Source of the DNA: Lytechinus pictus
Taxonomy: Eukaryota
DNA length: 64,000 bases
Assembly: GCF_037042905.1 (NCBI RefSeq)
Contig: NC_087251.1
Coordinates: forward strand, 48,238,001-48,302,000
Reading direction: 5' to 3'
Below, one piece after another: positions 8,389 to 54,274 of this stretch (position 1 is the stretch's first letter; each line of letters begins with the position of its first letter). A model generated the notes under the pieces. The model ran no database searches, was not told the origin of the DNA, and saw only the letters and a list, made by a program, of their open reading frames with translations. The translations under genes and the position numbers were made by a program.

Positions 8389-10044
8389 GTGAGTCCAATT
8401 CAGCAATCCTTGATCATATTCATATATAAAATCTGTTCCATATCTATATCTTTAATATTGGAGTGTTTATGGTTGTAGCACTAGCAGTGTCACAAGAAAA
8501 AAAAAGTAGAATTTTTAATTATTCAGATATTTCTATGCCTAGATAAAGTTATTGTTTAAATGTTTGAAAACACAATTACAGAACATTTAGGCCTATTCAT
8601 TTACAGACATACATTTTAGCATTTACAAACCCCCTATATAGCACTTTCCCATATTATGTCCAAAGCACTTTTCAGTATTAGTTCTGCCCACCAGGTACTT
8701 ACAATTATAGGCCTGGCCTAAAGAATATGCCAGTAACAAATCAAGTTTTAACATGTGAAGGCCCACCATCCTTAATAAATGCTCGAGAAAAGAATTTAAT
8801 ATGCACATGTGTCAAAATTTCATGTGTTTACCATAACACCGGGAACTGCCAAGAACGACAAAATAATCTATTGCTAATTGGTAAAAACTAAAAGAAAAAA
8901 TGCACCAAGCAGACAGGCTATACATCCCTGGCTATGAACATTAATTTTCAGGTGGGAAAACCTTGGTGTGCTGAAAAACTACATAGTTTATATGCCAGTA
9001 ACAATTCAATAAATTGATATTTGAGGGCCCATCGTCCATTTATAAATGCTCGTGTAAAGGTGTAGAAATCCATTAGATTCCATGTGTGTACCACTACCAC
9101 CTGGTACTACCCAGTACGAGAAAGCATGAATAGTGTTCATGGATAGCGTAGTGATAACGCCCCAAACAGTGCTTTGTCTACTAAACACATGCCATAAAAA
9201 TAATTGTCCATTATGCATGAAAACGATTTCCAATAGACAAATCGTGCATTCGACAATAAAAGCTCATACACCCACTTTTATTTGCTTTGAGGTCGCGAAC
9301 ACCATTCTCCTTGGCAGGTAGGAATGGGCGTGGTCGACCAACCTATAATACCGCATGACACCGCGCCGATTGGGGATTCCCCCTATTGACCCCACGTGAC
9401 CCCTGGAACTCGTGGAACCTCATTATTTGCGAGTGCTGCAATTGTTTGGCTTTAGGTGAGGGGGAAGGGAGGGGTCTTGTAACCATCCTGACAGTGGCCA
9501 TGGATTATGTGACCTCTATACTTTCATTGTTCTTGTCAGGTATAAAGTGTATATTTGTATTCCAATTGCTTGGAGGTTATTTTAATTTGATTAGTTGCTT
9601 GTTGGAAATATATTTGCCGTCACCATCATCGTCGTCGTCAATATCATCGTTACTATAATCATTATTGAATATTGTTTTATAAATCCTCAAACTTTGCATT
9701 CATCAGTTTATATAAAGGAGAACGATTTTATGACTGTACTACACGACGTAACGTTTGTCTTCAGAAAACATTAACATTTTGTTCTAATGGATCCTACTGC
9801 ATGGACTAAGGTCCATGCAGCCAACAAACTCGTGAATTGAATTGAATTGAATTTATTAGAACGTCACTGGCAATTGCCAATATTTTGTTCAAAACAAGAA
9901 GTACAAAATAATACAAAACAAATATACAATGCAAGGAATATAAGCAGATAAACAAAAACAAAATAGTATTTCGTCAAAAAGAGAAACAACTTATGTTTGC
10001 TTATAAATAGTAAATAATAGAAGGGAGGGATAAGCATGCAGGTG

Positions 10045-10258
10045 ACATATATACACATATACATACACATATACATACATACACATACACATATACATAT
10101 ACATACACATATACATACACATACACACATACACATATACATACACCCATACATACATACACACATATATACCCATATACATATACATACATACACATAT
10201 ACATACATATATACATACATACACACATAACATATATATACATATACAAATATACACA
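10045..10258. repeat. (CATA/CACATA)n microsatellite
   Basis: Direct low-complexity purine-pyrimidine repeat; source of several spurious ORFs. Confidence 0.95.
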
Positions 10259-10822
10259 ATCAACATAGGAATCATTCGGATAGATATTTTGACAATGATA
10301 ATATAAAGACTGATGTCCAAGAAAAGATAAAGAAAACATAAAGTGAGAGAGGAAAGGGAAATAAAGAGGAAAGAAGTTCGAGAATGGAGAGAGTGGGAAA
10401 GAGAGGAAGAATGAGAAGAATGGCATTACATGTAAACACAATGTGTAAATATATTACGATTACTACATAATGCTTGCCGGTTGATATTTTCAGTACTCAG
10501 AAATCACCCCTTATAGCAATTATGTTTTGGATAAAAGAACAAAACAATTTAATCAAGACTATATGTGTATATGCTCGTGTATATTGTCATGCACACTGTA
10601 CCATTTGGTCTAATTTCCATTAAAAAGAGCAAATGTGCACATTTCGAATGGACATTTAAAACAATATTAGTGGATTGTAAAAATAATAATGGTCACAAAC
10701 CCATGTAGATTATACTCTATAAAGACGAACAGTCATTTGCGTTTGTTACGTCATTGGAACATTATTAATGCTGAGTCTATTATTATGGTCACCAACTAGA
10801 CTATAATGGGGCTACAACTTAA

Positions 10823-17979: not shown

Positions 17980-18360
17980 GAGTTGCCAATTCGTCTACTG
18001 CCAACTCGTCCACTCACCACATGGTCTACTCGTATTTAGTCTAATGCCATTCATTCCACCAACATTTCGTCTAACAACCATTTGGTCCAATAACCATCTG
18101 GGATTTGGTCCAATCATCACTTCGTCTAATCACCATTTCGTCTCATAACCAGTTGGTCTAATATCCATTTCAATTTCAATCATTTTGCACAATTAACACT
18201 TAGTCCCATTAGACCAAATGGTATATGGACTAAATGGCTATTGGACCAACTGGTTATTAGACGAAATGATGAATGGACGAATTGACAATTAGACCATGTT
18301 GATAGTCGACGAACTGATGGTGGACCAAATGATAGTAGACGAGTTGGCAATTGGACGAAT
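17980..18360. mobile_element. Inverted-repeat MITE built of short TTCGTCTAA/TTGGTCCAA units
   Basis: TTGCCAATTCGTCTACT at left versus AGTAGACGAGTTGGCAA at right; unit orientation flips mid-element. Confidence 0.65.
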
Positions 18361-19189
18361 TTTAATACTAGTAGATGATTTGGGAATAAACCGTTGTTTG
18401 ACATGTTGAGTCGGTTAATGCCATAAGATGCTAATCAAATGATTTTGAGCTGTAATATTTGTAAGCCGGGCACGTATTATTTAAGTAAAGCCTCGTCAAT
18501 AAAGTCAATAATTAAAAGCATTCATGTATCGTAAAGTGTACGTGTCTGATTTTCAAAATTTCTACATGACTTTGTGATTTCGCTACCAAACTTCTTTGGC
18601 TATCAGAAACGCGTCCATCATGAATATTTTTGGAACACAGCAGGGAAACTAAACGTGAGAAATCCTTCAACAAATATTCTTAGTCATCTGGGAGATTTGG
18701 CATCAACACCACTTGATGGAAAACAAAAATCAGGAGAATCGTTGGAAATGAAAAAATGGGCGTTATCTCAACCACGTCATGCAGAGGGAAAAAGAAAGTT
18801 TGCAGTAATCACGCTGACGAAATGTAATGCAGTTTGGCAACGTGAAACTTACAGCAGCTCAGAACCATACACATCTCTGCTGCATCGCATTGAGGAATAT
18901 CATATGGGAGAAATATAATGATATCTTCGTTAGCCGGAGGTTGGGAAGAATATGCAGACTGAGGTGTTTTATCGGACACCGTTTCTTCTCTGCCAAAGTT
19001 TGCATTGGAAAAGTTACGGGTTTGTTTCGATGACACATTCATAATTGGTATAGGAAATTTATGAGGTTCATGCCATCATGCATGTGAAATATTCAGAAGT
19101 GAGCTTACGAGGGAAAGTCTGATCATTGTGAATGGGGTTTGAACAATTTCGGGGTGAATAAATGAGAAGAGGGGGGAGAGAGGGATGTA

Positions 19190-19341
19190 CACTCTAAAAA
19201 TGAAGTGCTAATTTAGCACTTAAAATGTCCTTGTTTGAGTGCTGATTTTCTAGTTCAAATTTGAATGACTAAACGAGCACTTAAAGTGCAGTCACTATAC
19301 AAGGACATTAACGCTGAATTAGCACTTTATTTTTTAGGGTG
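19190..19341. mobile_element. TA-flanked MITE
   Basis: TA|CACTCTAAAAATGAAGTGCTAATT ... AATTAGCACTTTATTTTTTAGGGTG|TA. Confidence 0.75.
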
Positions 19342-21059
19342 TATAATATAGAAAGACAGATCGAGAGAAGGGAGGTGAGAGGGAGGGGTAATAGGGGAAG
19401 GAAGGGACTCGCAAAGGAGGGAGGTAGAAAGAGAGAGAGAGAGAAAGAGAGAGAGAAATGGAAGAATGAGAGAATGATAAAGTTAGTAAATAATAGAGGG
19501 AAGGTAGGGACTCGGATTTATATATTGAAATCAAATGATTAAGGAAAGGGGGAGGGATGAGGGAGGGAGGGTGGATAGGTGGGTGGTGCTGACATCGTTC
19601 ATCTTTTTTTTTGGTCTGAAAACATTTACAAATCGACGCCCTCAATTGCAGTCTGCACCTACAAATATGCTTTCCACCATAATGCGCGCATGCTCAATCA
19701 TATTTTCATGTGTGTGCGTGTGCAAGTGAGTGTGGGTGCGTGTGCCTGTGTATGTGTTAGTGACTCTTTTTAATTCTGTGCTCCTATCGTGGCTTAAACT
19801 GATGTTTCAGAAACACCAATATTAATTAGCAGTAAGCTTAAAGCAAATTTTGCGCTCCACTCAATGTGACTTTGTGGAAAAAAAAGAAAGGGTCTTTTTT
19901 AATTAAATGGATCGATGAAGACGATTGATAAGCAAACAAGCAAACCCTTTAGGATGTATGCAATAGAAATTAAAATGCTATGTAAAAGCTGTTTGATCGT
20001 TTTGATAGCTTTACAGTAGTAAAGTGTCTGCTAAGTGGCAAGGTGGTGGTTAGCTGGGTTGTTACAGGTGAAATTATGCTTATCCTTTAGTTTTAGAATA
20101 AACGAAAAAAAAAATAAAGAGGAAAAAATCCTACGAAAATAGATGGTATATGTTGTGATAAGGCGCTTTTTAGAAAGAGGAGAAAAAGTATTAATTTGTT
20201 TATGTGCGCAATAGTTGAGGATTTGCGTGTGTGGGGTGAGCGTGCATGAGTGTTGGGTGTGTAAAAGATATAATAAAAGTGAAAGGGGGAGAAGAAAGAG
20301 AGATGAATGGAGGGAGAGAGAGACTGAGAGGGAAGGTAAGATCGTGTATATTTTGTAAGTATAAATATTACTATGAATTTTTTCGAATGGAAAGGATTAC
20401 AAACTTTTGAATTTGATATGCTTATTTGCAAATGTACAAAACAAATGGAAGCATAACCAAACAGTAACACCTCCCCGATATAATAAGATAAATGCGACTT
20501 TTACTAAAGTGACTAGCGGGAAAATAGATTACTTACTAGTTTGTGAAATTTACATTGAGTTGATTAGAATGCTCTAGAATGCATTTCCCACGTGACCAAC
20601 ATCCCAATACTTCTGTAAAAAGGTAATATAGATTTTGTATGAAAGAAAATATCGTCGATATACAATAGAGCTGTGTGTGTGTCGTATCTCTTCCCTAGCA
20701 TTTTCTCGTCTGTAAATTTAATTTCTTTAAAAAAAAAACCCAAAAAAGGGAAAATCATGAAAAATGAGTTTTAACGTAGCGTTGAAGAGCTGGCCCCAAG
20801 AGAAATCAATGGTTTACCAATTCGCCTGTATAAACAGAACTATCGATCACATTACGAAATCTAATGAATTGCTCATTTTCGATTTGAATGTTTTCAAATT
20901 TCACCGGTCTATTTCTCCTGTTTTCTCGTCAAAATGTGTTTATAGTTTATTGAAGACTTTTATACTGAGTTGCCCCCCCCCCCGACGTCTTTGATTTCTC
21001 CACATATACCTAGATGTATATGTGTAGAGGTGAAGCAATCTGCAGTAGATTTTACCGTT

Positions 21060-21385
21060 ATTGATGATGATTAATGATGGAGGTGGTGTTGGTGGTGGTG
21101 GTGATGATGATAATTATATTATTGATGGTATTGATGACCGTGATGATGCTCGAGATGAAGGTGATGATAATGGTGATGAGGATATTATTGATGATTATGT
21201 TATTGATGAAAATATTGATGATGATGATGATATGATGATGATGATGATAATGATACTAGTGATGATAATGATGATGGTGGTGGTGGTGATATTGTTGATG
21301 GTAATGATAGTGATGATGTTTATGATGATGGTGATGATAATGGTGTTGATGAAAATATTGATGATGATAGTGATGATATGATAAT
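21060..21385. repeat. (GAT/GGT)n degenerate microsatellite
   Basis: Direct trinucleotide repeat; explains the Asp/Met-rich ORF 21061..21381. Confidence 0.9.
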
Positions 21386-23859
21386 TAATAGGGAGCGGGG
21401 GGGGGGGGGGTCATTATTTTGTATCCATGTAACATGTAATTTTATCGTATGTACAAAAAAATGACGCGTAAAAAGATAATAGAACATATTATTTTCTCTC
21501 AGTTTTGTTGGGGCTGCTACGAAAGTCGAGCTTTGTAAAACACTGACCCGCGTTCCAAACTAATCAATTAGTTATCTCCTGTTCAACCCCCAGGCTTTAT
21601 ATTTTGCAGAGTGATATCCCCAAATGACAGGTGCTTGGAGTATTACAGTTGTCTTTTCAGACACATCTTCAAATTGCCATTTTTGCGTCGTATAGAGGAA
21701 AATGAAGGGGATGCCCGGGGGAGGGGTGGATGGGGGGGGGGCGGGTGGCTTTGGGGGGGTTAAAGGGATAGGGGATATAAAGAAATCGGGAACACACGTC
21801 TGACTTTTCTTGTGTGTTCGAAGTTCCTTGATCAAAGATGCATGAGAGAGGTCCAGTATGGGCTCTGTGAGAGGGAAGCGACCATGTTAAAGAAGCCCAA
21901 CAGGGGAGGGGGTCGGGGTATTAGTTGGCCTACCCCTGCGCCCCCCCTCCCCATCAGCGCCTATTCACTCACAGCGTCAACCCTTGGGATGGAGTTGACA
22001 GGCACTGTCCCCACTTGTATCTAGTTGAAACTTTGATAAAGAAATTGGAAATTTGGCTTCAAAATTAAATATTCCATTGTAAATTCCCCTTACATAAAGC
22101 AATATCCCTGTTTCGAATGATAATATTCCTATTCAATGTTTATTATGCAATGTATTCCATGTTGGCCTCTGCCTCTAGCTCTCTTTTGTGCACGCCTTGT
22201 CCCACTATTGTGTTTTCTCTCGTATCATCTCTACAAATCCTTGCCTAAGCTCGCGATTTTATCTGAATACCTCACCCTCGCATATTCCTATGTAAACTTC
22301 TTGTTCGCCCGTTCTCATCTATTTTTGATCCATTCCGGGCATTTCTTTTCAAAAATAAAATAATTCCGTCGGGGATCACAAGTGCTTGCGAAATTGCATT
22401 TTCTAACTATACTCCACGGTGTCGATAGTCATTGACCTAGCCAGAAGCAGTTAGTCAGTCTTTGGAGGGAGGAGATGGGGAAAAAAAAACCATCACAATT
22501 TGTGTATTCCTTTTGCCTTTGGCAGATGCGTCATTCATTGAATTTCCATTAAAGCTCGTGGATAGTGTTGGTAAAGGATACAAAAATTCCAGTTGAATGG
22601 ATCTTTCCTATTGAATAACGATTGCTGATGATGATTCAATGCGAAATTGACAGAATTTCTTCTTGGAAATATTAAATTTTAAATAAACTCCGAGAAATAA
22701 AATCATTCTCCTCGGCTGAATTTCAAAGACAGTTCGCTGAATTTATGCGCACTTATATAGCGCCCACTTTCGTCCACGACTGATTTTTCCCCCTGTTAGT
22801 TGATCACTAGCCGTTCCACTTTTAGCAAACCGAAATATCCCTGCGAGCGTAGTCTGCTAATTCCGTGTGCGCGCTCGTCGATCATTGTTCCTTAGTTTTA
22901 GCATGGCCTCCGTCGAGTCTCTCCCCCAGCGAGTTCGGCGAGGAGCACAGCTAGGAAACCGATGAATTTTTGTTAGATGGGTTAGATAATTATTAAAAAA
23001 AATGTGGACTAACTTACCCCTTATGCTGTCCCTCCAACCTGTAGTTCACATGTTACAGTAGTTTATTTTGACGTTCATGAAAACGTATTAGAGATGAGTC
23101 TGTCAAAATTTTGGCTACAAATTTCCACGTGCGACAAGATTGGTTCATGGTTCTTGAAACTGCGAGATACATTATACTGCATGCTGCATGCGATGCGATG
23201 CGATGGACATTGGTCACGCTCGCTCAGCTCGGCGCTTCGGCCTGACATTCTCTCACGCTTTATCCAACTCTATGCATTCTGTTCATACACACTTTTGCGT
23301 GTACGATGTGTTCATGTCTTTCACGTCATATTTCAGCGCATGCATTGGGGAAGGGAAATTAATTTGGAAGTGGGAAAAGGGAGAAAAGAAGAAAGGGAAA
23401 GGTAAAAAAAAAAAGAGGATAACAAGTAAAGGAAAAGAAAGAACAAATGAGGCAAGGGAAACAGGAAATAAGAATGGAACGAGCTAACATGATAGCAGAG
23501 GCAGATCAATTTCGCGGCCAATATCACGAATATGGGGGGGGGGGGGGGGGGGGGGTTTCACCCATTATTTTCCACGATCGACCGCTCTGAGTTGATTTTT
23601 GTTTGTTTCTTTCTTTGAAGGTGTATACCTAACAGTCAGCTTTATTCTTATAAAACAACATAAATGCAGGGGCCGCAGAATGGTTTTCAAAGTGAGGGGG
23701 GCTGAGTCAAATGTTTTTTTTTTTTGGGGGGGGGTGACCATGCAAAAAATCACAATCAAATGGTCATTTTTACTTTTTTGAACACGGTTATGGAAAAAAG
23801 CAGGGGCTGGAGTCCCCCCTCGCTTCCGCGACCCCTGAAATGTATAATCCTATACGTAC

Positions 23860-39123: not shown

Positions 39124-39598
39124 TATAGATGCATTTTTTTGTGGAGAAAAGGCAATCGACAGAAGTGGATCTACCTGTAGTGTTATATTTGATGCCAAGC
39201 ATGCCCCTGCAAACAACGAACTAGCCAAACAAAGCAAAGCAAAACAAACCGAAGCAAAGGCAAACAAACAATCCAAAAAATAATCATACAGTCCCGCAAT
39301 TGAAGAAAAATGATAAGTCATTAACACCTGGGCCATGATCCCTCCGGCCCATACTTTTTTTCAAATTTCATTTCCCTATACTAGGTCTCTACTGTTCTGA
39401 AAAATATGGTATTAGCTTCATCCTAGAATAGTTTCCCTTTTATTGTGATATTTAGGTCTGAATACATTCAAGTACCAACAATTCACCGCATGTTCTTCAT
39501 TCTCAGCATCTTGGAACACATGTTCTGCGCATGCGTACTTCCGATCGGTGGTCCTCAATTCGATAGAAAGTGACACTTTAATGGGGTGTTGCAAGAAA

Positions 39599-39825
39599 CT
39601 TGCGATTGAACGCAAATCGAACGCAACTCCCAAAATTGAGCGTAAGTCCTCCGATTAAACGCAAATCTGCAATTGAACGCAAGTTACGTTCAATCCTGTT
39701 GCAAGAAGAAGTTGCGTTTGATCAATTGAACGTAGATCAAGCGCAAGCTTTGCGATTGATTGCAAATCGAACGTAACTTATGTGAGATTTTGGAGGACGC
39801 GCAAAATTTGCAATTGAACGCAACT
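39599..39825. repeat. Left subterminal repeat array of the Harbinger element
   Basis: Multiple TTGC(G/A)ATTGAACGCAA-like motifs in both orientations. Confidence 0.85.
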
Positions 39826-39844
39826 CCTCCTCACAATCATCAAA

Positions 39845-42800
39845 ATGGCTGAGGGTGAGGCAATCCATCGCCATGTCCCAGAGTCGAGAGTGGATCCCTT
39901 GGTTGATTTTACGGATAAACAGTTTAAAAAAAAGTACAGATTTAGGAAGAATGAAGTGTTAAGGATCATGGACATGCTAAATAATCAGGAGATGGACAGG
40001 GCAACTCAACGTAGTAATTCATTGTCGAAATCTCTTCAACTCTGCATCGCACTGAACTTCTTTGCCAAGGGATCCATTCTCGACGAGATCGCCACCAATC
40101 ACATTGTTGATCCCGGAACTGTAAGCCGGTGCATTCATACTGTTGCCCAAGCATTGTGTGATATCAAGGGCCAAGTGAGTACATCTATTTTTATTCCGAA
40201 CTTATTAAATTTTAATTTAAGGCCTGGCTAGCGTGCGGGTTTATCGCCCGGTTCTTAGCGATCCGCAGCGCGTAGTCGCCGCTCATGTCCTGGCATGGCC
40301 ATGGCGCTGGCCGCCCCCTGTGCCTCTACGGGCAGATGGACGTGGTGCTCCGTGTAATTTAGCACAGTGCTTGCCGGTTTGAAAACTCATCGATTATTAA
40401 AGAAAATTAAAGGTCTAATAGTATATTGAATGGATATTATCCGAGACTAATGAAATGAGGATAGCCTACCCTACAACCTCATCGATCAGATGTTGTATTA
40501 CCACAAACAAAACCCCTAAAACTTTGCAACTTACCTCCGGCATTTTTTTAGAGATATCAACGATAAGTTCAGCAAGTAGCTACACATACCGGTACGTACC
40601 GCTAGCACTGGCCGCGCGGGCGGTGGCATTTGGTATGTCGGCCTTTGCCGGTTTGCCCAGGCCTCCAGGCAATAATTGACCCCAAATTATCACTTTTTGA
40701 AGATAATTCCCCTCGTTATATCTAAATTATATTTAAATTTAAAATGATTGTTTAAACAGAAAATACATTTAGGGATCAGGTGGGATGATTTAATTCATCA
40801 TTATGAGCTGCCAAAGGGATTACTACAACAAGTCCGGGTGGCATCAAGTATCGGGGGGGGGGGGGGGGGGGGGGGTATCCATAAAAATGTGAGAATACAA
40901 AGCAAGCAAGTAAAAAATTCAAATTATTAGGCCTATGTAAAAATTTTCACATTTTCGTCGATCAGGACATTCTGGAGGAAGGCTACTTAATTGATAAAAA
41001 GTTAAAATTAAAAATAAATCACATCTTGAATGTGCAAAAAACTCATCGAGCGGGGATATGATAGCCAATTTTTATAGGCCTATATGGTTGAATGTCAAAA
41101 TAAGATCAATAGAATTAAAGGGGAATGACAGAAAATTTAAGAAAGGACCAGATAAGTCACACTCATGGCCGCACACATACATTTTTCGCTGGGGGGGGGG
41201 GGGGGGGGGGGCAGCACGCATAAAAAATTTTCGAAAGAAAAACCCAAAAGCGAGCAAGCAAAGTGAGTGAGCTTGTTATTGGGGCGTTCCTGCATTTTGT
41301 CATGTGAAATTGAAAGATTTGGTGCATGATTTGGTGAATTTTCATTTTTTTTAAATGTAAGTTTTAAAAATTTCTGGGGGAGGCACAACTGCCCCCCCCC
41401 CCCTCCAATGCGTATGGCCATGATGCTCTCAGTGAGAGATGGCAATGCTGTCCTGCTAAAATAAAGCAGAGGACCTGCGAAATCCTCTGGTAGACAAGGG
41501 CAGCCGGATAATTTGCAAAAGAAAAAAAAGATACTGGGAGAGGGAAGGAAATCATGTGCCCAATATAGATAATTTTTTCGAACTTGAAGGTGACACTTTT
41601 TCCTTGCATGAAAAAAACTAGGCCGGCTACATTAAAATATATACCATGTAGATTTGCTCCAATCACTCTTTTTATCATCATCATATCTTCTTTCTCCATT
41701 ATGTCTTTATATAATATAATATAATAAAAAAAGGGCCATTATGAAAAAAATAGAAGCTAATTAAACATAGTTGAATTTGTTCATTATTCTTTTTATAAAG
41801 GTTGGGATAATGTACCTTTATAAAAAAATACTTTATATTTAAATATTAAAACAATTAAAATATTTACCTTCTAAAATAAGTGGGAATCAGATATTTCTGT
41901 TTAAATTCAAAGTTCAAGGACAAGTCCACTCCAACAAACAGTTGAGTTGAATAAAAAGAGAAAAATCCAACAAGCATATAACACTGAAAATTTCATCAAA
42001 ATCGGATGCAAAATAAGAAAGTTATGACATTTTAAAGTTTCACTTAATTTTACAAAACAGTTATATGCACATCCTGGTTGGTATGCAAATGAGGAGACTC
42101 ACTATTCACTATTTCTTTTGTATTTAAGTATATAAAATAGGGAATATCCTATTTTTCTCCTCATTTTCAATTAAGTGAAACAACGATTCAAATCCTCCCT
42201 GAACATGTGGAATGAGCACTGTTTAATACTATATGATTAATTCAGTCAAGTTGGTTCTTATTGTCAAATCTAAAAAAAAAATGAAATATTGTATAATTCA
42301 AACAATAAAAAACAAACTAAATGATGAGTGATGGACATCATCGACTGACTCACCTAGTTGTGCATATCACTGTTTCGTAAAAAATAAGCGAAACTTTAAA
42401 GTGTTACTTCGTTATATTGATAAATCTTCAAAGTTCATTTGCTTACAACTGTTCAGTGTTACTTAAGATGAGCTTTTGATGAAATGTCCAGCATTAGGAT
42501 TGTTTGTACTTCTCCAAACCAACTTTACTGGACATTGAGTTCTATCATTTTTTATTTTTTTATTTTTTTATTTTTTTTTATTTATTTTTTTTGGAATACA
42601 TCCCTATTAAATCAAGAAAGAAAGTATGATGAAACAAAAGGTAGAGTTAATCTACATTTATTTTTATTTCTTATCAACACACAAAATTCAAACATGTAAC
42701 TTCAACAACTTTCAATTGTATAATCATAACTTTTTTTTTACATAGGTAATCAAGAAGGGGAATTAGGCAAGCATTAATAAAGTATTTTAAAAATCTTGTT

Positions 42801-45178
42801 ATTGAATTATCAGCACTTTCAGTATTCAATCAAATACAAGTAAACAGTCATGTTAACTGAATATTGAAGACAACAAATCCATGTTCAATATCTGCATTAC
42901 TTTCTTACTATTTTTTTTAGGTAATCAAGTTTCCAACTGAGGAGGAGGAAGTAGCTCGAAACATGGCCGATTTCCATCGCATTGCGAATTTCCCGAGAAT
43001 TAATGGCATCATTGATTGCACACATGTAGGAATGCATGGTACTAAACTAGGGCCACATGAATATGTTTATAGAAACCGTCATCAACAGTACTCTATCAAC
43101 GTGCAACTTGTGTGCGATCCTAGCTATAAAATCACAAATGTTGTCGCCCGTTGGCCGGGCTCAACCCATGACAGCAGGATCTTGCAGGTACTGTCTTTTG
43201 TATTTGGGTTTTAAAATGTTTTTGTAAACATTACTTAAATATTGAATATTTCATACTTTCTATAACTGTCTCTTTTGAACACTACTAAAATTTGTATAAA
43301 TAACATGTTAATATAAATTAATATATATTGCAACACATTTTCACATCATTTAATACTAATAAATAAATGAATAGAATACGATATGATATTGACATATATT
43401 ACACTATAAATATAAACAAACACTGATATTTATTGACTTCATTCATGTAGTTTATATGTATTTTTTAATAAATAAATTACAATTACAAAACATAGAACAG
43501 ATGTGTAATTACATCTAATATTTGATATTTTCATCTCTATCAGGCAGTATTAAATAACATAAATAAATTCCATGTCCATGTAGAGTGATTAAATGAGTTG
43601 AAATGCATGTATTCTTTAACCAAATCTATTACCATTTCATTAATAATATTGAATACAAATACAAAAAGAATTATATCACATTGACATATTAATTTGATAT
43701 ATATTTCATAAATTAGTCAATGTATCAAAACCATTTTTACCATCTCTTACTCATTCTAATATTTCACTACAGAATAGCAGATTGGCCACAAAGTATAGAG
43801 CAGGGAGACTCCAAGGACTCATTTTGGGTGATTCGGGGTACCCTCTCCTACCTTGGTTAATGACCCCCATCTTAAATCCGACAACCCCTGCAGAGTTTGC
43901 CTATAACACGTAAGATTGATTCAAATTTTGTAATATTTCTTAAATAATGTAACATGTATTTTGCCACTGACTCAACTACCATTTGGTTTAACCATGTATT
44001 AAGTTCTTTAAATAATCCTACTTTCACAAGTACAGAAATATGAAAATGCTAAGGATCACTGATTTTAATCTAAAAAAAGATTCTTATTGAAATTCAAAGA
44101 CACTTCAAATTGTGAATTTTGAATTAAATGAATAAAATGAATATATAAGTAGTTTAAATGAAAACCTATTTCTAGTGTAGTAGGTTTCACAGTACACCAT
44201 GTACCTACTACACTATTCTTCTTCACCATGAAAACCTTCAGAAGTTACATCATTGCAAGTATTATAATTTTAATTGAGAGAGTGAAAAGGGGATTATTTT
44301 TGGTATTCAATGAGAAAACAAGTGGAACATATCAAAAATTCATTGACCCTAAATGACGTTTGACCTTGGTCACGTGAACTGAAACTCGGAAAGGATATTC
44401 AGTAATAGTTGATCACCCTTGTATCTAAGTTACTTGAACTAGGTCCATATACTGTCTAATTTATGATGACATTTTATAAACTTAATCTTGGGTTAGGATT
44501 TCAATGTTGACGCCACCATTGCTGTTGCGGTCAGAAAATGGTGCCTATTGTCTCACTCTGCTATGCAAGGCAAGACAAAAACTAACTCTTTACAATAAAT
44601 GGGTGCAGATATTTTACATTGTACAATTTAGATCACCTCTATATTTCAGTTGATGTACAAGTTATCCTGAAATTATAAGATTATAATTGAAGGGGGTGAT
44701 AGATGGATTATTGAACAAATAATAGACACTTCCACCACATAGGTTGTGGATGAGTCCATTTATTCACTTATTCATCCATATACTGTTCAAACACCATGAA
44801 TACGATTTAAATATTCATTTTTTTTCTATTTTCATTTAAACCATCTGTAGGGCACACAGAAGAACCCGTGTCATGATTGAAGATGTCAATGGTCAGCTTA
44901 AAAATAAATTTCGGTGCTTATTAGGCCATGGCATGCAGATTCAACCAGAACGTGTATGCCCAATAATTACAGCTTGCTGTGTGTTATTTAACATAAGCAA
45001 GGATCTACAAAGGGAACGGAATGATGCTGACGACTCAGATGAGGATAGTGATGATGAGGATCAGAGGCAGGCTGTGGAAGATGGCTGTGTTGGTGCCAAT
45101 GGGGCTGACATTAACAGAGAAGTGGACCCTACAGGCACAGCTGTGCGTACAGATATTGTAAGGACATTTGAGACATGA
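39845..45178 (+). CDS. Harbinger (HARBI1-like, DDE_Tnp_4-type) transposase, 353 aa, 4 exons
   Basis: Exons 39845-40174, 42921-43187, 43773-43909, 44851-45178, all GT-AG and phase-compatible (0,0,2), 1062 nt. Motifs GIIDCTH, NR...SINVQLVCD, WPGSTHDSRIL, LGDSGYPLLPWLMTP, YN.AH..TR..IE..G.LK.KFRCL, ACCVLFN; N-terminal HTH-like region. Confidence 0.92.
41916..42420. mobile_element. MITE family A copy, right-truncated, in transposase intron 1
   Basis: AAGGACAAGTCCACTCC start and colinear similarity to 45320-45860. Confidence 0.75.
44318..44582 (+). mobile_element. Helentron/HINE-like repeat, short copy
   Basis: ACAAGTGGAA start, TGACCTTGGTCACGTGA core, 3' hairpin GTCTCACTCTGCTATGCAAGGCAAGAC; similar to 49486-50145. 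Confidence 0.55.
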
Positions 45179-45319
45179 ATTACAGTTCATTATATATGTT
45201 GAACAGACAATTACAAAGCATTGGACTGAAGGAAGCAATAAGTTTAGACATAACTTTACACATTGTGATGAGAAAGCAATATATTAAAATCAGCATGAAG
45301 TGAAACAGGACATTCTTAA

Positions 45320-45860
45320 AGGACAAGTCCACCCAAACAAAATGTTGATTTGAGTAAAAAGAAAAAAATCCAACCAAACATAAGATGTAAAATAAGTTAT
45401 GACATTTTAAATTTTCGCTTAATTTCACAAAATAGTTTAGGCACATCTCGGTTGGTATGCGAATGAGGGAACTGATGACATCACTCACTCACTATTTCTT
45501 TTGTATTTTATCATATGAAAAATGAAATATTTTGATTTTCTCCTCATTGTCAAGTGAAACAGAGTTTTATTTCTCCCTGGAATTACCACTGCTTAATATT
45601 TTATAGTTCAGTCAAGTTTGTCCTCATTGTCAGATCTGCCAAAATTAAAATACTGTATAATTCGAACAATAATAAACAAAAGAAATAGTGAGTGAGGGAC
45701 ATCATCGATTCTCTCGTTTGCATGTGACTAAATAAGCAAAACTTTAAAATGTCGTAACTTTCTTATTTTACATCCGATTTTGATGAATTTTTTAGCAATA
45801 TGCTTGTCTGATATTTCTCTATTGATTCAAATTAACATTTTTCTGAGGTGAACTTGACCT
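45320..45860. mobile_element. MITE family A copy between the two Harbinger genes
   Basis: TTAA|AGGACAAGTCCACC ... GGTGAACTTGACCT|TTAA. Confidence 0.85.
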
Positions 45861-46129
45861 TTAACTTTTCAATTATACAGGTTATCATCTATCAAAATGT
45901 GATAAAATGATGGTAAATAATCAATAATTGTATGGGCTGTTTATTCTGTGATGTACGGGTTTTACCTTTCATTCAAGTTTTGAAAAACCTGAATGCTATT
46001 CTGAATCATTTTTCTCTTGCATGAACGAAGTTCAGTATAGACCAGGGGTGGTATTCTGAGATCCATTTCATCTCATATAAAATAAGATATCTTATCTCTG
46101 TTAAAACCAGTGAGATAAAATACCCTTAA

Positions 46130-46356
46130 AGGGGAATCCAGCCTTGGCCATAAAATGTTGTGTTGGGAAGGAGAAAAATAAATTAAACAGAATGGTGAAA
46201 GTTTGAAAGAAATCGGACAAGCAATAAGAAAGTTATAGCTGCTTTAAAATTGAGATCACTAATACTATGTAGATTCAAATTGGCAACTAGGTAAGTAAAT
46301 TATGACAAGTGGCAAGGACAACTTTCCCATAGTTTTTATTTGGGTTGGATTCCCCT
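46130..46356 (+). mobile_element. MITE family B, internally deleted copy
   Basis: TTAA|AGGGGAATCCAGCC ... TGGATTCCCCT|TTAA; lacks ~370 bp relative to 10823-11418. Confidence 0.88.
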
Positions 46357-46843
46357 TTAACCCCTAAAAGGACTGATGGCCCCCTCAACGCTTTGCGCAA
46401 TATTTCCGAAACGCAAAAAATATAGTGCCGCAAAATGTTATGACTTTTTACTTTTAAGTCTCGTGCAACTTTTGAGACCAATTTTGCCATATACGGGTAT
46501 AGCATCGCGACGCCATGTGACTTTATACGAGACAATGTCAAGCCGAAAATGGCTCATTTTTATACTTTGTGTACAAAGTCTATCGAAGATGAAATTCATA
46601 AAAGCGTTTTTTGTTCTGATTGGTCTGTTTAATTAATTTAGGGTTTAATTTAGTTGTTAAATGGTCTGTTATAATTTCCAATGAAAAAAAAGAGAAACAA
46701 AAGATGAAAAAATCAAAAGAAATTCTTAAAACAATTTTTCTTTGTGGAAACCTTTAAATTAAAAAAGAAAGAATTGATTTGAAAAAAAAAACTAGTTTTG
46801 CAAGAGAAATCAGGCAAGATCTGTGGGTCACAAACCACTCTGA

Positions 46844-49800
46844 TTAACACTCCTTTTCAACGAATTGCCTGATCATATCTCTTATTTCTTCAAGGGCAAC
46901 GACACATCTCTCTTGCAACACTAGTTTTCTTTTTTCCAACTCAATTCTTTGTTTTTTTAGCTTTAAGGACTCTTCCTCATATGAGTTGTGCTGAACTTTT
47001 CTCTTCTTAGTGGCCTGAGTGGTTCTTGAAGTTGAAGGATAGGTGGCAATTGTGCGAACAGGAATACCGGTAACTGGGATACTGGGTAGAGATGGCACAG
47101 ATGGTTGCACACTAGTTGCCATTGTAGTAAAAATCTGGGCAGCTGCTGTCTCAGAATCTGTGTCCTGTTTTTAAAAGTGAGAAAAAGGAATATCAATAGT
47201 AACCTTCATTTTGTTATTAAAATATCTCATTTACACTTCCTTTCAAATTCTTAAGGTAGCTGCTGTCTCAGAAGCTGTGTCCCAATTTCAAATAACTATG
47301 GATATCTTTTTTTAAACAAGTTACTTTCCTTCATAAGGTATCTTCATATGTCAATCTCTTTTTCAACAGATTTTCAGTATTGATTATCAAGGAAGAACGG
47401 GTACTCACATGCAGAGTTGATGTAAAGTTTGCTGCATCATAATACGATAGGTCAAATCATCTCCCATTCAAAATATATTTATAATTACATCAAACTTTTA
47501 AGCAACAAAATGCATATTTAATAAAAATTTAGTTAACCTGTGATGATGGGAGTCCAGCCTCTATCTCGTTTCCGAATATCCCACTTATAGCCTGCTGGCA
47601 TTGTGCATCTAATACGGCCTCAAACACAGAATTAAGATTGAATGGTCCTCCTCCTGTTGAGTTCAGTAAAAAATATAAACTCTATTGATGAAGCTATATG
47701 AATATCAATAATTTTAAATGGATACAATTTATTCGATACAGGTATTTCATCATTTATTATAGCTAAAATTATCAAATGGAAAAAGTTCCCTAATTACTTA
47801 AAGCTGTATGATATGTAACTTATGTATATTTGTAGCATGTTAAATATGCTCCAGATGGTTCTTTTCTTGCATAATTCTCACGAATGCCACTTCTGAAGCA
47901 TGAATGTTTTTCTGTGATAAAATTGAGAAATAGTGAGATGAATATTTTTCTTTTTGCACAAATCTAATGGGTAAGAGACAGTGCATTTTTTAAAAACATG
48001 CATTGTACACATTTGTTCTTAGATACATATACTTAATAAAGAAATATAGATTGCTGTTAGCCATGTTGGTTTCTAATTCAAACACACAAAAAATGTATGT
48101 GACATGTCTGTTTGAAGGAATGCTGCTATGAATGTGCTGTGTATTCACAAGTGGCTCCCCACATTAGCAATTCTTCCATCTATAGCACATTGTGGTGGGT
48201 TATGGCATCAAAATAAGTTTCCAAGCATGACAAATCTTAAAGATAAATGCCAGTTGCAGTAACAATCTCAACATGACTTCAAACAGAATCCAATGAATTA
48301 CCACAAGCGTTTGTATGTATTAACAAAAAAATACGAGCCAAATACCTCTAGAAGAAACTGTATAATTGCTGAAAAATGAGTACGGAATTCCTTCAGATGT
48401 TTGGTATTTTTCGAAGCAATGTTAATTCGGTGTCCCATATACATTTTTATGTGTTAGTAATCATCAGAATAATCCATTTTGAGCTAGGATTTCAAGATTT
48501 ACAAAGATAAGTTTACATTAATGTACCAGAGCTAGATGTATGATAATACTTTGACAACCTTGATTTAATAGACTTTCTCATAAAATAGTGATTCAATTAC
48601 TGCCTTTTACCTTTAACTAGTCATTTGCAAAATAATTCTAGATTCATAGAAAAAAAAACCTTGAATGCTTATGAAATATAATTACCTGTCTTATTCTTCT
48701 CAACTACATATTTATTAGCTCTAATCTTCAAATCACTCCATTTCCGCTTAATGTCCTTCCAACATCTTGATGTTCCATGATTCAGAAGTAGCAATTGTTC
48801 ACATTCTTCCCAGGTTTTTTTCTTCCTTTCCTCTACCTGTATTTATTTACAATGAGCATTTCAATATGAAAGAAATGTATGATTTATCTTCAAAGGTGTA
48901 AAATTAACTTGTTTATTCATTATGTACAATAGTAGTGTATAAAAAGACATTACCAGATATGAAAATAAATAAATCCTGATGTACAGTATATTGTCTTTAT
49001 AGTTTTGTACTGTTGTTATAAAATGACTTGAATGATCAAAAAGTTTGAAGGTGATGATGCATCAAATTATTATTTTTTACAATCACAACAAAAACACAAC
49101 ACACATTCTTCTAAAGTGCGGTAGCGTACAGGATAATACATGGGGTCCAACGATGTAAAAAAATTAGATTGAAAATTGATTTATATAATCACTGTTGCAA
49201 TTTTTTATGCTAGAAAGAAAAGGCGATAAAATTTAAAAATATTTCCTGAATATTATTTTGTAAAATAGCCTTAAAAATGGACATACGGAAGCTTTTCGAC
49301 TTCAGTATGTCTGCTTTTAAGGCTATTTTACGATTTTGTGGTACCAAACAATGATTTTATTACTCTATTTATTTTCAGCAAGGAATAACCCTTTATAAAT
49401 ATTAATGTTGACAACAATGAAGCCTAGTCTCGCTATGTGATTTGAGTGGGACAAAATTGAAAATATATGTTGTGAATATGTCCAGACAAGTGGAATGCCT
49501 CTGGCAGTCTCACCTGCATTACGCTATTCGATATAGCAGCAGTGCTGACTTTGAAAACAGCTATTTAATAATAATTCACAAAAGAAAACACTCATGTGAT
49601 AATAAAATACTATGTCAATTGACCCAACATGACCTTTGACCAAGATCGTGTGACCTAAGACATGTGCAAAACAATCATTCATACTTGATTAACCGTATAT
49701 CTATGTTTCATGAACGACATGTGTAGATCCATAAACTTTCTAAGTTATGCCAATTCAAAAAATACCCCCATCACGGCCAAAGTTCATTGTCCCTAAATGA

Positions 49801-51141
49801 GTTTGATTTTGGTCACGTGACTTGAAACAAGCAAAGGATATTCAGGGATACATAGTTATTCTTATGTCCCAAGTTTCATGAACTAGATCTATAAACTTTA
49901 AAGGTTATGACAATTCCACAAATACGCCCAACATTATCATAAATTCATTGACCCTAAATGACCTTTGACCTTGGTCATGTGACCTGAAACTAAGGCAGGA
50001 AATTACTTGATTACCCTTATGTCCAGGTTTCATGAACTAGGTCCATTCAAAAACTTAACCTTGGTAAGATTTCAATGTTGACAATGGCGCTGCAGTCGAA
50101 AAAGCGGCGCCTTTAGTCTTGCTCTGCTATGCAGGCAAGACAAAAATTATTGCCTCTTTCAAATTCCTTTCTTTTCTTTTCCTAAATGAAACCTTGCAAG
50201 ATAATTTACATAATTACCGTCTGTGTACAGTGCCCAGAGTTTCCAAAGAGAAGCTGGTGCTTCTCTGTCACGAATGAGCAAACTGTGAAGATTTCTTGGT
50301 CTGACCAGTTTCTGTTTCTCTTCTTGATCTATACGATAAAAAAATAAATGTTTCAAAGCACATGTAATTCACAATGTTGTTTATTACTAAGTTCACACAA
50401 ACATCCGAATTACAATCTATATGTCAAGGTACCCCTATTACTGGGTTCAAGGCAAACCCAAGACCAACAATTTGTCATGGCCTTTGTTGTCCCTCTATAA
50501 TTGGTCTTGGATATTTCTGTAGCATTTTATGTACATTTGTACTATACCCAACGGCGTACCCAGGATTTTCCAAAAGGGGGGCATATGTTTTGGAGGTTAT
50601 TTCGTCCGCAAAAATATTTGACAAGCGAAAAAAAAAGGGTCTTCAATCTCAAATAAAGGAGATTTCATACCCAAAAAAAAGGCATTCAAGTTCAAAAGAG
50701 GAGGCATACGTCTGTTTTTATTGCATTTTTACATTACAAATTATTAATTTTGCTTCTCAAAGGGGGGGGGGCATCTCCTAGATCAGTTGTGACTTGTCAG
50801 GGGGGGCAGTACGCTAGGGACTATACCTGATCGAAAAATGGCATTGCCCCCCCCCAAAAAAAAAATGCTCCATTTTCGTGTGTATTTTTGTACAATAGAG
50901 AAGTAACTGAAATTAAAATGGTGTGTAATCATTGTAATATGCTTTAGAGTTTTTGGATTTCCATACAGATTCTAACATGATCATAATTGCAATACAATAT
51001 TTATATATTTTCCAAGTGAGAATATTCAAACTACATAAGCAATCATTTTCATAAATTACCGGTGTAGCAAATTGCAATGTAACTCCTTGCAACACCCCAT
51101 TAGTCAAAAGAGGTACTTACTTCTGAATTTGCTGAATCCAT
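46844..51141 (-). CDS. Harbinger Myb/SANT-like DNA-binding protein, 239 aa, 5 coding exons
   Basis: Minus-strand coding exons 51141-51121 (MDSANSE), 50328-50218 (IKKRNRNWSDQEIFTVCSFVTEKHQLLFG..), 48836-48686 (..KKKTWEECEQLL..RCWKDIKRKWSDLK..KT), 47653-47538 (GGGP..), 47164-46844 (low-complexity region plus C-terminal coiled coil). All GT-AG, 720 nt in frame. Likely non-coding first exon ending at 53437. Confidence 0.85.
48241..48612. mobile_element. TTAA-flanked Kolobok-like MITE (family C) in a Myb-gene intron
   Basis: TTAA|AGATAAATGCCAGT ... ACTGCCTTTTACCT|TTAA, imperfect TIR. Confidence 0.65.
49486..50145 (+). mobile_element. Helentron/HINE-like repeat with internal ~165-bp tandem units
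   Basis: 5' GTCTCACCTGCAT is inverted to 3' ATGCAGGCAAGAC; 3' hairpin followed by an A-run; repeated GACCTTTGACC..GTGACCT units. Confidence 0.6.
50549..50819. mobile_element. hAT-like MITE with 8-bp TSD
   Basis: TSD ACTATACC at 50541-50548 and 50820-50827; ends CAACGGCGTAC / GTACGCTAGGG. Confidence 0.7.
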
Positions 51142-52358
51142 GATGCCTGGAAGAGAAAGAGAGAACATATTTATGATTTAATTCTTGTATCAACTTAAAA
51201 AAAAATACTTCCTAATTGCATACCTAGGCAATTGGTCTCAAAAGTTGCTCGAGACTTGAAAAATAAAGTCAGCAGGTGCTGTCAACAATTCAAGTGGCAG
51301 ATATTTAATTCTGAAAGGATGTTTGTAACATAAACATGATTATACATTTAATATGTTATGAGTCTTTTATTATTCTTTTAAGTGAAAATATATGGAAAAT
51401 ACACAAAGTGAATGGGAAATACATAAAACTGTTCAACGGATAATTTTTATATCTATTCTATGAAGGTCCAAATGCACTGATTTTTTTTCTCTAGAAACTT
51501 TTTTTCAAATATCGCAGTCAATTCAATTTACTTTAAAAAATCTGGTATCAAAATAAATTCCTTTCAATTCATGTTTTTTTTTAATATTTTTTCTTAACTT
51601 CTTTGATTTTTTTTTATTGTTATTTTCAAGACAAAGTTCATCAGTGACATTAAATTACTATTGTCACTTAAAAAAAATTACCAAGTTATGAATATTGACT
51701 TTTTACATGTAATCATGTTTTTGTCTGACATGTACTTAAACAAACATAATGTTGCAAAATTTCCTGACCCTGTACCTGGGAATGGCAAATTTAGTATCAA
51801 AAGTTGTGTGAGACTTGAAAGTAAAACGTCAGTCAGTGGAGCGGGAATAAAATTTTGAGTGGCAGATTTATTCTGAAAAATGTCAAGGGGGACCATATGC
51901 CAAATGCCCCCCCCCCCCCCCGAGTATTGTGCTTGATGTAAAAGGATGTAAAAATAAAATCATGATTATGCATTCAATATTAATAATGATGCACCATATG
52001 AGACACCCTTTAACTGAAAGCACCTGGAAAAGCATTGTAATCATCCATTTAACAATTTAAAGTGAAAAAAATCTGTCATCTATATAGCACCTCATGTGCT
52101 TGCATAAAAATCGAGAGTCAGCTACATAGTAGCCCAGGGAGGGGGGGGGGGGTACTCACGAGATAAGGCATATGGGGATATGCCGCAGGAATGGGTTGCC
52201 TTTTTTGAAGAAACCCCTAAACATTGCGTATGGTTTTATGCTGGAAAATCCCTAAGCATGGCCCCATTTTTTAGAAAATGTCCTTAAATATGGGTCCATA
52301 TTCTACTCCAATGTCTTAGGTGCTAATACAAAATGACCTTACATTTTACACCTTACAT

Positions 52359-52891
52359 ACTACCGCTACACTACACTCCACCTACCCGAACTTTGAGACC
52401 GTAAACTCTATCTGCTATTCCGAGTGACAAAGGTGGGATTTTATGGGGGAAAATATAAAATTCATGCAACATCACGACCTTTAAAAATAATTGAATTTAA
52501 TATTCTTACTTTACACCAAGTTTCACTTCTTTTCCATGCTTCTATCAGTCACAAAATTTGTGATTTAGAGCCAACACACAGTTCCTCACACGTATAAATA
52601 ATTCGCTGCCGATTTCAAAATATTGCATGCATGCGCGATACGGCAGCAAATTATTTATTTTTGTGAGGAACTGTGTGTTGGCTCTAAATCACAAATTTTG
52701 TGACTGATAGAAGCATGGAAAAGTGAAACTTGGGTGTAAGTAAAAATATTAGTTAGGCCTAATTGTTTTTAAAGATCGTGATGTTGCATGAATTTTATAT
52801 TTTCCCCCCATAAAATCCCACCTTTGTCACTCGGAATATCAGAGAGTTCAGTCACGAATTTCGGGTGGGTGGAGCATAGTGTAGCGGTAGT
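52359..52891. repeat. Long imperfect palindrome (foldback), ~250-bp arms
   Basis: ACTACCGCTACACTA..TATTCCGAGTGACAAAGGTGGGATTTTATGGGGG..GAGCCAACACACAGTTCCTCACA mirrored at 52660-52891; centre ~52625. Confidence 0.88.
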
Positions 52892-53454
52892 GAAGTGGAG
52901 TAGGGCCTGCACGAACTTCGCTCGAGGTAACGTTAGACAGACTCTTAAAAAAAAGAGAGACAAATGGAGAGGAATCTTTTTTTGTGGAAATGTCTAGGCC
53001 CCTAACGTTAGACTGTAATGCCAAAAAAGTCTTTATTTACTGGATGGCTATTCGCCGTTGAAACCGATATAACTTAAAAAATCATTTCAAATAAGAACAA
53101 AAATAATCTTTAAAGGTCATTTTCGATGTTTCATACATAATTAGAGCTATACATTTACTTGCTTATGGGTGATTTTTAACAGCACTGCACCGGCAATGAC
53201 CTGCCGTGTTGTTGATACAACCGTGCATAACCGACACAAAAAGTCAAGTGTGGGACTGGTATTGAAATTGTACTGTAGAAAATTTGTTGAAGGTGAAATT
53301 TCGATCGGCGATAAAGATTTATTTTCACTTTTTCAAAAATTATTTTTTCCCTGGCATAGGTCTAAAATATATAAATTCTCTAAAAACATACATTATGGAG
53401 AAAGAATCGTCTGAAAAATGAATATTTTCTACTTACTCTCTTCCACAAACAGGA

Positions 53455-53659
53455 TTGTTGCAAGCCAATATTTTGCTTTTTCAGCTAGTCTTGTGCTGCA
53501 GACCCTGTTTACAGCTGCAAATCGTCTGCCGATCAGCTGCAACTTGCGTTCAATTGCAAGCCTCTTTCTTGCAACGCAAATTTGCGATTGATTGCTAGTT
53601 GCAGTCGATCGGAATCGGCTGCAAAGTTGCAGTCGATTAGCAATCAATTGCAACGTAAC
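53455..53659. repeat. Right subterminal repeat array of the Harbinger element
   Basis: AACTTGCGTTCAATTGCA (53541) is the reverse complement of the left motif TGCAATTGAACGCAAGTT; TTTGCGATTGATTGC is shared with the left end. Confidence 0.8.
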
Positions 53660-54274
53660 TTTCTTGCAACACCCCATAAGTGTGTTTTCCTGAACTTCTG
53701 TCCTGGCTGTCTGTACTATTTGCAAAAGGGTGACACTGTCCTGCATTTGAAAAAGTGAAAGTCCACAAAGGAGTTAGAAGTTCAGAAATCCCGTACATGG
53801 CATTATTCCATCTAAATCTTAGAAAAGATATTGCTGGTGGCACTGATTTAGTGTCCATATTGAAAAAGGTCGTGGTTGAATAGGGTTGCAAATCAACTGG
53901 GAAAAAAAGTTGATGAAAATGGCAAAAGTAGCACCATGGTTAGCTGCTCAGGCCAGGGCCGAAAGAAATACGAGGCTCAATATTTATTACTTTGTATTTT
54001 ACTCGGAGTTTATTCGGTGTGTAAACATAGAGGTCAAGTATGAGAGTTGGACAAACATTCTTTCTTTATCTTACCGATCTTGTTTACTGTCGCTCTAGTC
54101 TGGAGACACGTGTCTCACAAACTTTCTTTCAAGAAAGCGACCGCCTGTCACCACCCCATCCCTTTACATCTCCCCCATTATGTAGAAAGTCGTGCTTGCG
54201 ATTGAATATAATAATCGCGAATAATAGTGATATAATGCATCAGTTATTCAATAACTTGTCATTGTTCGTTTATC

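Follow-up and report, generated by a model that had tools for sequence, protein, structure and literature searches.

A structurally intact two-gene PIF/Harbinger transposon in Lytechinus pictus as the likely transposase source of a non-coding family

Does the genome of the sea urchin Lytechinus pictus hold a complete PIF/Harbinger transposon with both of its genes, and could such an element account for the many gene-less relatives that share its ends? The question is raised by a 14-kb locus at positions 39582-53676 of the stretch analysed here (the window: 64,000 nucleotides, C7:48,238,001-48,302,000 of a eukaryotic assembly of 812 Mb in 368 contigs), in which two convergent genes lie between inverted ends. 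A first-pass annotation of this DNA, made from its letters, had described the locus as a complete, apparently autonomous two-gene Harbinger transposon hidden by introns. The evidence set out below points, with a probability of roughly 0.7, to a structurally intact PIF/Harbinger element of autonomous type that is the only two-gene copy in the assembly and the likely source of the transposase that recently mobilised about 200 non-coding relatives.

Inverted ends and a pair of convergent genes

The element is bounded by perfect 17-bp terminal inverted repeats (TIRs), as the first-pass annotation had stated. The left TIR, TGGGGTGTTGCAAGAAA, occupies 39582-39598 on the plus strand and is the exact reverse complement of its right partner at 53660-53676 on the minus strand; each is flanked by the trinucleotide TAA, at 39579-39581 and 53677-53679, which forms the target-site duplication (TSD). 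The TIR pair is not a product of chance, because the 17-mer occurs in 685 exact copies in the genome (335 forward and 350 reverse) and its reversed control in none in either orientation (0 + 0). An absence of sister copies had been named in advance as a finding that would speak against the element, and for the ends this objection fails, as sisters exist in the hundreds. Within the window, four TIR matches with at most three mismatches were observed against 0.29 expected, and a generic scan for inverted repeats placed the TIR pair at rank 13 of 317, so that local statistics alone would be insufficient to pick it out.

Short repeated motifs are concentrated just inside the ends. The left subterminal region (39582-39811, plus strand), which is common to all sister copies and presumably carries the transposase promoter and the 5' untranslated region, contains repeats of AACGCAA and of GTTGCAAGAA, the latter representing internal copies of the TIR core that are found in the element ends. 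AACGCAA occurs seven times in 0.5 kb of element ends, compared with 0.04 times per kb across the remaining window. By analogy with other Harbinger elements, the AACGCAA and GTTGCAAGAA repeats are candidate binding sites for the Myb-like protein described below.

The first gene, on the plus strand, has four predicted exons. Exon 1 (39845-40174) encodes 110 amino acids of the N-terminal region and ends at the donor GTGAGT. Exon 2 (42921-43187), between an AG acceptor and the donor GTACTG, contains the DCTH and HDS motifs and matches positions 1-60 of the Pfam domain DDE_Tnp_4 (E 7.6e-13); exon 3 (43773-43909), between AG and GTAAGA, contains GDSGY, ends in phase 2 and matches positions 45-109; exon 4 (44851-45178), which follows an AG acceptor, contains the IE motif, an acidic tail and the stop codon TGA and matches positions 111-158 (E 5e-9). 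Joined through GT-AG introns throughout, the four exons give 1062 nt and 353 amino acids with no internal stop, and exons 2-4 cover DDE_Tnp_4 collinearly. The proposed transposase of this length is thereby recovered together with all four of its acidic motifs. Pfam searches with exon 1 alone, and with the short exons of the second gene, returned no meaningful match.

This gene is already present in the public annotation. The 312-amino-acid protein P0001, "putative nuclease HARBI1 [Lytechinus pictus]", coincides exactly with the C-terminal part of the 353-amino-acid model and so uses the same three junctions; it aligns with DDE_Tnp_4 over positions 1-158 of 158 (E 7e-36). The first 41 residues, which P0001 lacks, align well with the start of P0002 from Diadema setosum, a protein of 352 amino acids that is the closest one found (68.8% identity over the full length, gap-free at the junctions); the best matches named for Lytechinus species are 46-55% identical. 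The predicted transposase junctions rest on this identical public gene model and on the gap-free alignment to the 352-residue homologue. The transposase retains all 20 of the 20 columns that are invariant in an alignment of 39 proteins, among them D101, D153, D178 and E214 (P0001 numbering; 41 is added for the 353-residue model), three of which we take to form the catalytic triad.

The second gene runs convergently on the minus strand and consists of five exons with AG/GT sites throughout. Its first coding exon (51141-51121, peptide MDSANSE, donor GTAAGT) is placed from the public model, P0121, and not from reads. The next two exons carry the first half (50328-50218) and the second half (48836-48686) of the Myb/SANT domain, the latter with matches to Myb_DNA-bind_4 and Myb_DNA-bind_5; they are followed by an exon with a GGGP motif (47653-47538), the third of the four downstream exons, and by the last exon (47164-46844), which encodes a basic KKRK stretch and a charged, helical-looking tail and ends in the stop TAA at 46846-46844. 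P0121, publicly listed as "uncharacterized protein LOC135154813 [Lytechinus pictus]", has 239 amino acids and equals the gene model as first drawn except for the first seven residues. An earlier candidate for the first exon (50478-50458, seven codons, donor GTTTGC) was dropped in favour of the exon at 51141-51121 with its better donor; the protein has 239 amino acids with either of them. Seven introns in all split the two genes, and the description of the element as hidden by introns is a relative one, since both genes were visible in the public annotation and one of them already bore the name HARBI1.

The Myb/SANT-like assignment, also made in the first-pass annotation, is borne out by both Pfam profiles, since P0121 scores 30.8 bits against Myb_DNA-bind_5 (cut-off 21.7) and 29.8 bits against Myb_DNA-bind_4 (cut-off 27). 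Word-based protein searches with a Myb exon and with P0121 returned the self match only. An exhaustive HMMER search with P0121 found 169 relatives at E<=1e-3, the best of them 45% identical, and all 38 of the 38 aligned relatives match Myb_DNA-bind_5. The KKRK stretch may serve as a nuclear-localisation signal and the charged C-terminal tail may form a coiled coil, as judged from their residues. A predicted complex of P0001 (without the first 41 residues) and P0121 scored 0.37, and one unrelated control scored 0.41, which is evidence neither way.

Transcription of the Myb-like gene was followed by mapping two contig runs (X2 and X3, guessed to be RNA) and two raw stranded RNA runs (X21 and X22) on 46650-48900. 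Three minus-strand junctions were recovered. Junction 47164/47538 is spanned by one contig each in X2 and X3, by 4 reads in X21 and by 8 in X22; junction 47653/48686 by the same two contigs, by 2 reads in X21 and by 0 in X22; junction 48836/50218, which appears as a loose end at 48837, by one contig each in X2 and X3, by 3 reads in X21 and by 10 in X22. The consensus of the loose ends is the reverse complement of the 3' end of the exon at 50328-50218, and both junctions of the GGGP exon are among the three. The intron ends read CT..AC, which is GT..AG on the minus strand, and depth is 2-8 in the exon bins and about 0 in the intron bins. Since all reads on this gene have their first mate on the plus strand, a first mate on plus denotes minus-strand RNA in these libraries. 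The Myb-like gene is transcribed and spliced, with three junctions confirmed. The contigs extend about 55 letters further in the 5' direction; because the place of these letters in the window was not seen, the first exon is not confirmed by reads. The statement that both genes splice in frame thus holds for their open frames and for three Myb junctions, but no spliced reads of the transposase were found in three raw RNA runs sampled at about 6% each.

Taken together, the locus shows the features by which PIF/Harbinger elements are recognised: a transposase of the IS5-related DDE_Tnp_4 type with its acidic residues kept, a Myb/SANT partner, a TSD of the TWA type (30 of 32 family flanks are TAA or TTA) and TIRs shared with non-autonomous members. 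The same features bear on the idea that the pair consists of domesticated host genes. Vertebrate HARBI1 and NAIF1 belong to the same two protein families as the L. pictus pair, and a history of this kind would agree with the public name HARBI1, with two single-copy, intron-containing genes and with the expression of the Myb-like gene. HARBI1 and NAIF1, however, lack TIRs and TSDs and are host genes that do not move, and domestication is recognised by the loss of both, whereas perfect TIRs and a TSD flank the L. pictus pair and the TIRs are common to hundreds of young mobile copies. The name HARBI1 has also been given automatically to dozens of transposon-like proteins from sea urchins, fish and insects. 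Domestication is accordingly regarded as very improbable.

A large non-coding family and its target site

Searches with different parts of the element gave sharply different copy numbers. The left 201 bp found 249 candidates in the genome, and the 40 that were scored are 98-100% identical, with matches starting at the border of TSD and TIR; the right 221 bp found 213 candidates, of which 39 non-self ones were scored at 94-97% identity. The DNA of transposase exon 2 and that of the last Myb-like exon each gave one match from one candidate, the element itself, and the best other exon-2-like protein match in the genome is 63% identical. From the candidates for ends and interiors, about 180-250 non-coding relatives of 4-6 kb are estimated.

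Ten complete sister copies, with lengths of 4.2-6.2 kb, were retrieved. Both TIRs are present in 10 of 10 and identical 3-bp flanks in 8 of 10, and the two that were scanned for long reading frames, L029 and L023, contain none. Identity of the sisters to the 14-kb copy is 97.9-100% at 39579-39811, 87.8-94.9% at 51524-52347 and 90.2-94% at 53035-53680. What the ten sisters lack, 39812-51523, is exactly the two-gene cassette, and in its place they carry about 2.2 kb of a family-specific interior that has 178 candidates in the genome. This interior shows no similarity to the cassette in the window at a blastn threshold of E 1e-10, and its source was not found.

The right arm of the 14-kb copy (51524-53676) is shared with its sisters. 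Two blocks, 51524-52347 and 53035-53676, are present in all ten sisters, and 52359-52927 is present in one subfamily. The latter includes a nested fold-back (palindromic) insert at 52359-52891, delineated by the inverted-repeat pairs I1 and I6-I8, whose arms of up to 83 nt are 95% complementary; it also occurs in sisters L025, L026 and L030, all of one subfamily.

The family is divided into subfamilies that are 93-97% alike between and 99.4-99.7% alike within, and a 601-bp interior query matched 16 sequences, the query included, with about 4 mismatches or fewer. The left 230 bp form the segment most conserved among copies (mean 99.0%, compared with 88-97.5% elsewhere), a pattern that would fit a requirement in cis. 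The proposal of a recently active family is supported because there are hundreds of sister copies, some of them nearly identical; its limit is that the coding part is single-copy and that the sisters examined are non-coding. The 14-kb copy is probably the only source of transposase for the family. Apart from these copies, a cluster at C17:11.80-12.76 Mb contains at least 11 same-strand interior copies, about 95% identical to the query and tens of kb apart, and looks like segmental or tandem duplication of one copy, not transposition.

Insertion of a sister into repetitive DNA reveals how the target is treated. L025 lies in a satellite of about 445 bp, and in all 8 of the 8 monomers without an interruption its two flanks overlap by 3 bp exactly, so the monomers represent a clean paralogous empty site with an exact 3-bp duplication. 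Monomers of this satellite also fill small contigs (L039-L041; C55, C159, C103, C113). Across 32 distinct flanks, the TSD is TAA in 19, TTA in 11 and ATA in 2, and the neighbouring positions are biased as well: -4 is C in 29, -5 is A or T in 30 and -6 is G or C in 28. This composition gives a 9-bp palindromic target, SWC-TWA-GWS. Harbinger3_DR reportedly has a palindromic extended target around its 3-bp TSD.

A further group with the same ends consists of miniature inverted-repeat transposable elements (MITEs) of 206-220 bp (L032-L038, on C2 and C3), each with a perfect 17-bp TIR. Identical flanks were found in 6 of the 7 fetched, which means that those MITEs lie inside a larger repeat. Direct deletion from the 14-kb element was considered as an origin for these MITEs of about 220 bp and was rejected, as their subterminal parts are only 72-84% alike and as most of those fetched belong to that larger repeat.

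Insertion history, expression and age of the 14-kb copy

Several observations weigh against the reading of the locus as one intact element that recently served as a source, and they concern its insertion, its relation to its sisters, its expression and its age. The first is that TAA on both sides says little for a single insertion, given that the family targets TAA more often than any other trinucleotide (19 of the 32 TSDs). In addition, the left flank (CTT at -6 to -4) departs from the SWC consensus at -4; the right flank, GTG, agrees with the consensus. An empty allele was sought by means of the left flank, which matched only once in the assembly, so that there is no alternative haplotig. 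The arms also differ: the right arm is 87.8-90.6% identical to L023, L024 and L029, compared with 99.6-100% for the left 233 bp. As judged from these identities, the youngest subfamily does not descend directly from the 14-kb copy, and the discordance between left and right could have arisen through constraint, gene conversion or recombination.

These signs can also be combined into another history, in which the two ends derive from two independent insertions of family members on either side of a Harbinger gene pair, a chance arrangement that never formed one mobile unit. Matching TAA trinucleotides would often be expected by chance, the left flank is off consensus, the two arms differ sharply in their identity to sisters, and a third TIR-like sequence lies inside the element at 51083-51099 on the minus strand. 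In the sisters, however, this left 233 bp is joined to these right-arm blocks with order and orientation unchanged, and the cassette that they lack, 39812-51523, is bounded by the transposase start at 39845 and ends just past the first Myb exon at 51141. The two ends are also correctly inverted, and the window contains no partner ends for two separate elements. A composite origin of this kind is therefore hardly credible.

The internal TIR-like sequence has two mismatches, is preceded by GAC TAA, which fits the family target consensus, and lies within intron 0 of the Myb gene, 22 bp from the first exon. Homology to the right end is limited to about 31 bp, and 51083-51099 probably represents what is left of a family member inserted in the first intron of the Myb gene. 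It was also considered as the true right end of the element and rejected, because the Myb start exon would then fall outside and because the homology to the family end is restricted to those 31 bp.

Expression of the transposase is the next difficulty. Three raw RNA runs, each sampled at about 6%, were mapped over the transposase, and sense depth was 0 over the bins of exons 1, 2 and 4; the bin of exon 3 was swamped by repeat reads. No spliced transposase reads were seen in these partly sampled runs. Reads on exon 4 are antisense, that is, in the orientation of the Myb gene, at 1.9-4.8-fold depth, and contigs of X2 run unspliced over exon-intron borders of exons 2 to 4, at 42750-43367, 43579-44049 and 44443-45342. 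The minus-strand RNA on exon 4 may represent read-through from the Myb gene. Antisense RNA at 44443-45342 and Myb-strand RNA at 46650-47164 may feed silencing.

The lack of sense reads, together with the antisense signal, favours the view that the locus is an intact-looking but immobile and silent relic and that the young copies were moved by a coding copy absent from the assembly or the individual, or were cross-mobilised through a related Harbinger transposase. The assembly could indeed lack a second coding copy, and further support comes from the right arm (6-12% diverged from sisters), from about 130 other Harbinger-type exon matches in the genome and from old nested repeats in the introns. 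On the other side, the closest other transposase in the genome reaches only 63% identity in exon 2, and no exact TIR lies near this paralogue at C2:50.7 Mb, with C1 and C2 fully covered. Both frames are open throughout and no invariant residue has been lost, which makes long neutral decay unlikely; the left 233 bp are 99-100% identical to the youngest copies. The RNA evidence, in turn, comes from about 6% of three runs from unspecified tissues. On balance, a silent relic is considered an unlikely explanation.

The nested repeats also explain the unusual size of the element, which the first-pass annotation had judged large for its superfamily. Coding sequence accounts for only 1.8 kb, and the 14 kb are made up by seven introns, nested high-copy repeats, a repeat-filled 1.7-kb spacer and the 2.2-kb right arm with its fold-back insert. 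Transposase intron 1 contains a block of very high depth in reads and contigs (about 41820-42787). Its tested part, 41880-42300, gave 7355 candidates in a first look at the genome, and among 41 matches the 39 full-length non-self ones are 87-89% identical. Between the convergent genes, high-copy repeats at 45208-46659 are covered tens of times by raw reads from both strands and about 20,000-47,000 times by contigs, and variant letters are numerous there. Because the nested repeats are only 87-89% like their relatives, they are old, and the 14-kb copy may long have resided at this locus. Whether it is itself mobile is doubtful in view of the missing second coding copy, the old nested repeats and the large size; the copy probably moves rarely or not at all and acts in trans.

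Three further features of the window lie outside the element. An open frame of 167 amino acids at 7926-8429 on the plus strand, the end of which matches the Pfam family Spec3 (ectodermal ciliogenesis protein) at 25.8 bits (cut-off 27), probably represents the opening exon of a host gene that lies upstream of the element. At 9864-10453 the open frames are of low complexity, with many V, Y, C and M residues, and suggest a TG/CA-type microsatellite, and 18001-22000 shows strong GC skew (0.19-0.31) with low-complexity frames.

Proposed mechanism and related Harbinger systems

Two-component mobility is known from a reconstructed zebrafish element. For Harbinger3_DR, both proteins are required: the transposase is imported into the nucleus by the Myb-like protein, which binds the transposase N-terminus as well as the element ends (PMC9392472, summarising Sinzelle et al. 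2008). As described in that summary, Harbinger3_DR resembles the L. pictus element in having two genes, for a DDE transposase and a Myb/SANT/trihelix protein, and short TIRs (PMC9392472). It differs in that the L. pictus copy, known from its sequence, is natural and apparently uncorrupted, has genes with 3 and 4 introns, spans 14 kb and encodes other protein sequences. The 14-kb copy is read as the autonomous member and trans source of its family because its parts are intact and because both proteins are needed according to the published work.

By analogy, the Myb-like protein would bind the repeated subterminal motifs, with AACGCAA and the internal GTTGCAAGAA as candidates, and would also bind the N-terminus of the transposase, which would thereby reach the nucleus. 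Cleavage by the DDE transposase at the 17-bp ends would follow, with insertion at SWC-TWA-GWS and duplication of TWA. Minus-strand RNA on the last transposase exon may dampen transposase expression, which is a speculative addition to this scheme. The element may, we infer, be active at present.

Division of labour between few coding elements and many dependants is also known from plant systems. In Ping/Pong-mPing of rice and in the PIF and Tourist-like MITEs of maize, many non-coding derivatives with shared ends depend on transposase and a Myb-like ORF1 protein that one or a few coding elements provide in trans, and the TSD is TWA (TTA/TAA). Unlike 430-bp deletion derivatives, the dependants in L. 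pictus are mostly 4.2-6.2 kb long, of which an interior specific to them makes up about 2.2 kb, and the host is an animal.

Among animals, a comparable copy pattern has been published for sea kraits: Laticauda laticaudata has one intact Harbinger-Snek and many non-autonomous variants, and RNA on the coding regions was taken there as a sign of possible ongoing activity (PMC8437027). The likeness to Harbinger-Snek is one of published description, not of sequence comparison (PMC8437027). According to the same source, Harbingers have already been reported in the sea urchins Strongylocentrotus purpuratus and Hemicentrotus pulcherrimus (PMC8437027). The biology itself is not new, as Harbinger elements, the need for two genes and the existence of master and dependant families are well established, also in sea urchins (PMC8437027). 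No published account of the 14-kb element was found among the titles and abstract openings of the literature on L. pictus and on sea-urchin Harbingers. Horizontal transfer of the L. pictus element is not claimed.

A stronger proposal is that the locus is a live but stationary "mother" element, the sole natural source of a working pair of Harbinger transposase and Myb protein in a laboratory sea urchin, which drives several hundred dependants of 4-6 kb into a 9-bp palindrome and is throttled by convergent antisense transcription. This proposal is tentative and may well prove wrong. If true, this would be an animal Harbinger that is active in nature and could serve, with no need of reconstruction, as a transgenesis tool whose target preference is defined.

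The more modest reading, a structurally intact source in trans, has its own consequences. The public "HARBI1" of a model sea urchin is then the transposase of a TIR-bounded element, and its "uncharacterized" neighbour is the Myb partner. The ends, the candidate binding motifs and the 9-bp palindromic target are now defined, as any transposition assay or transgenesis vector would require. With one coding copy against about 200 dependants, some of them nearly identical, the L. pictus family is a testable candidate for a naturally active animal Harbinger.

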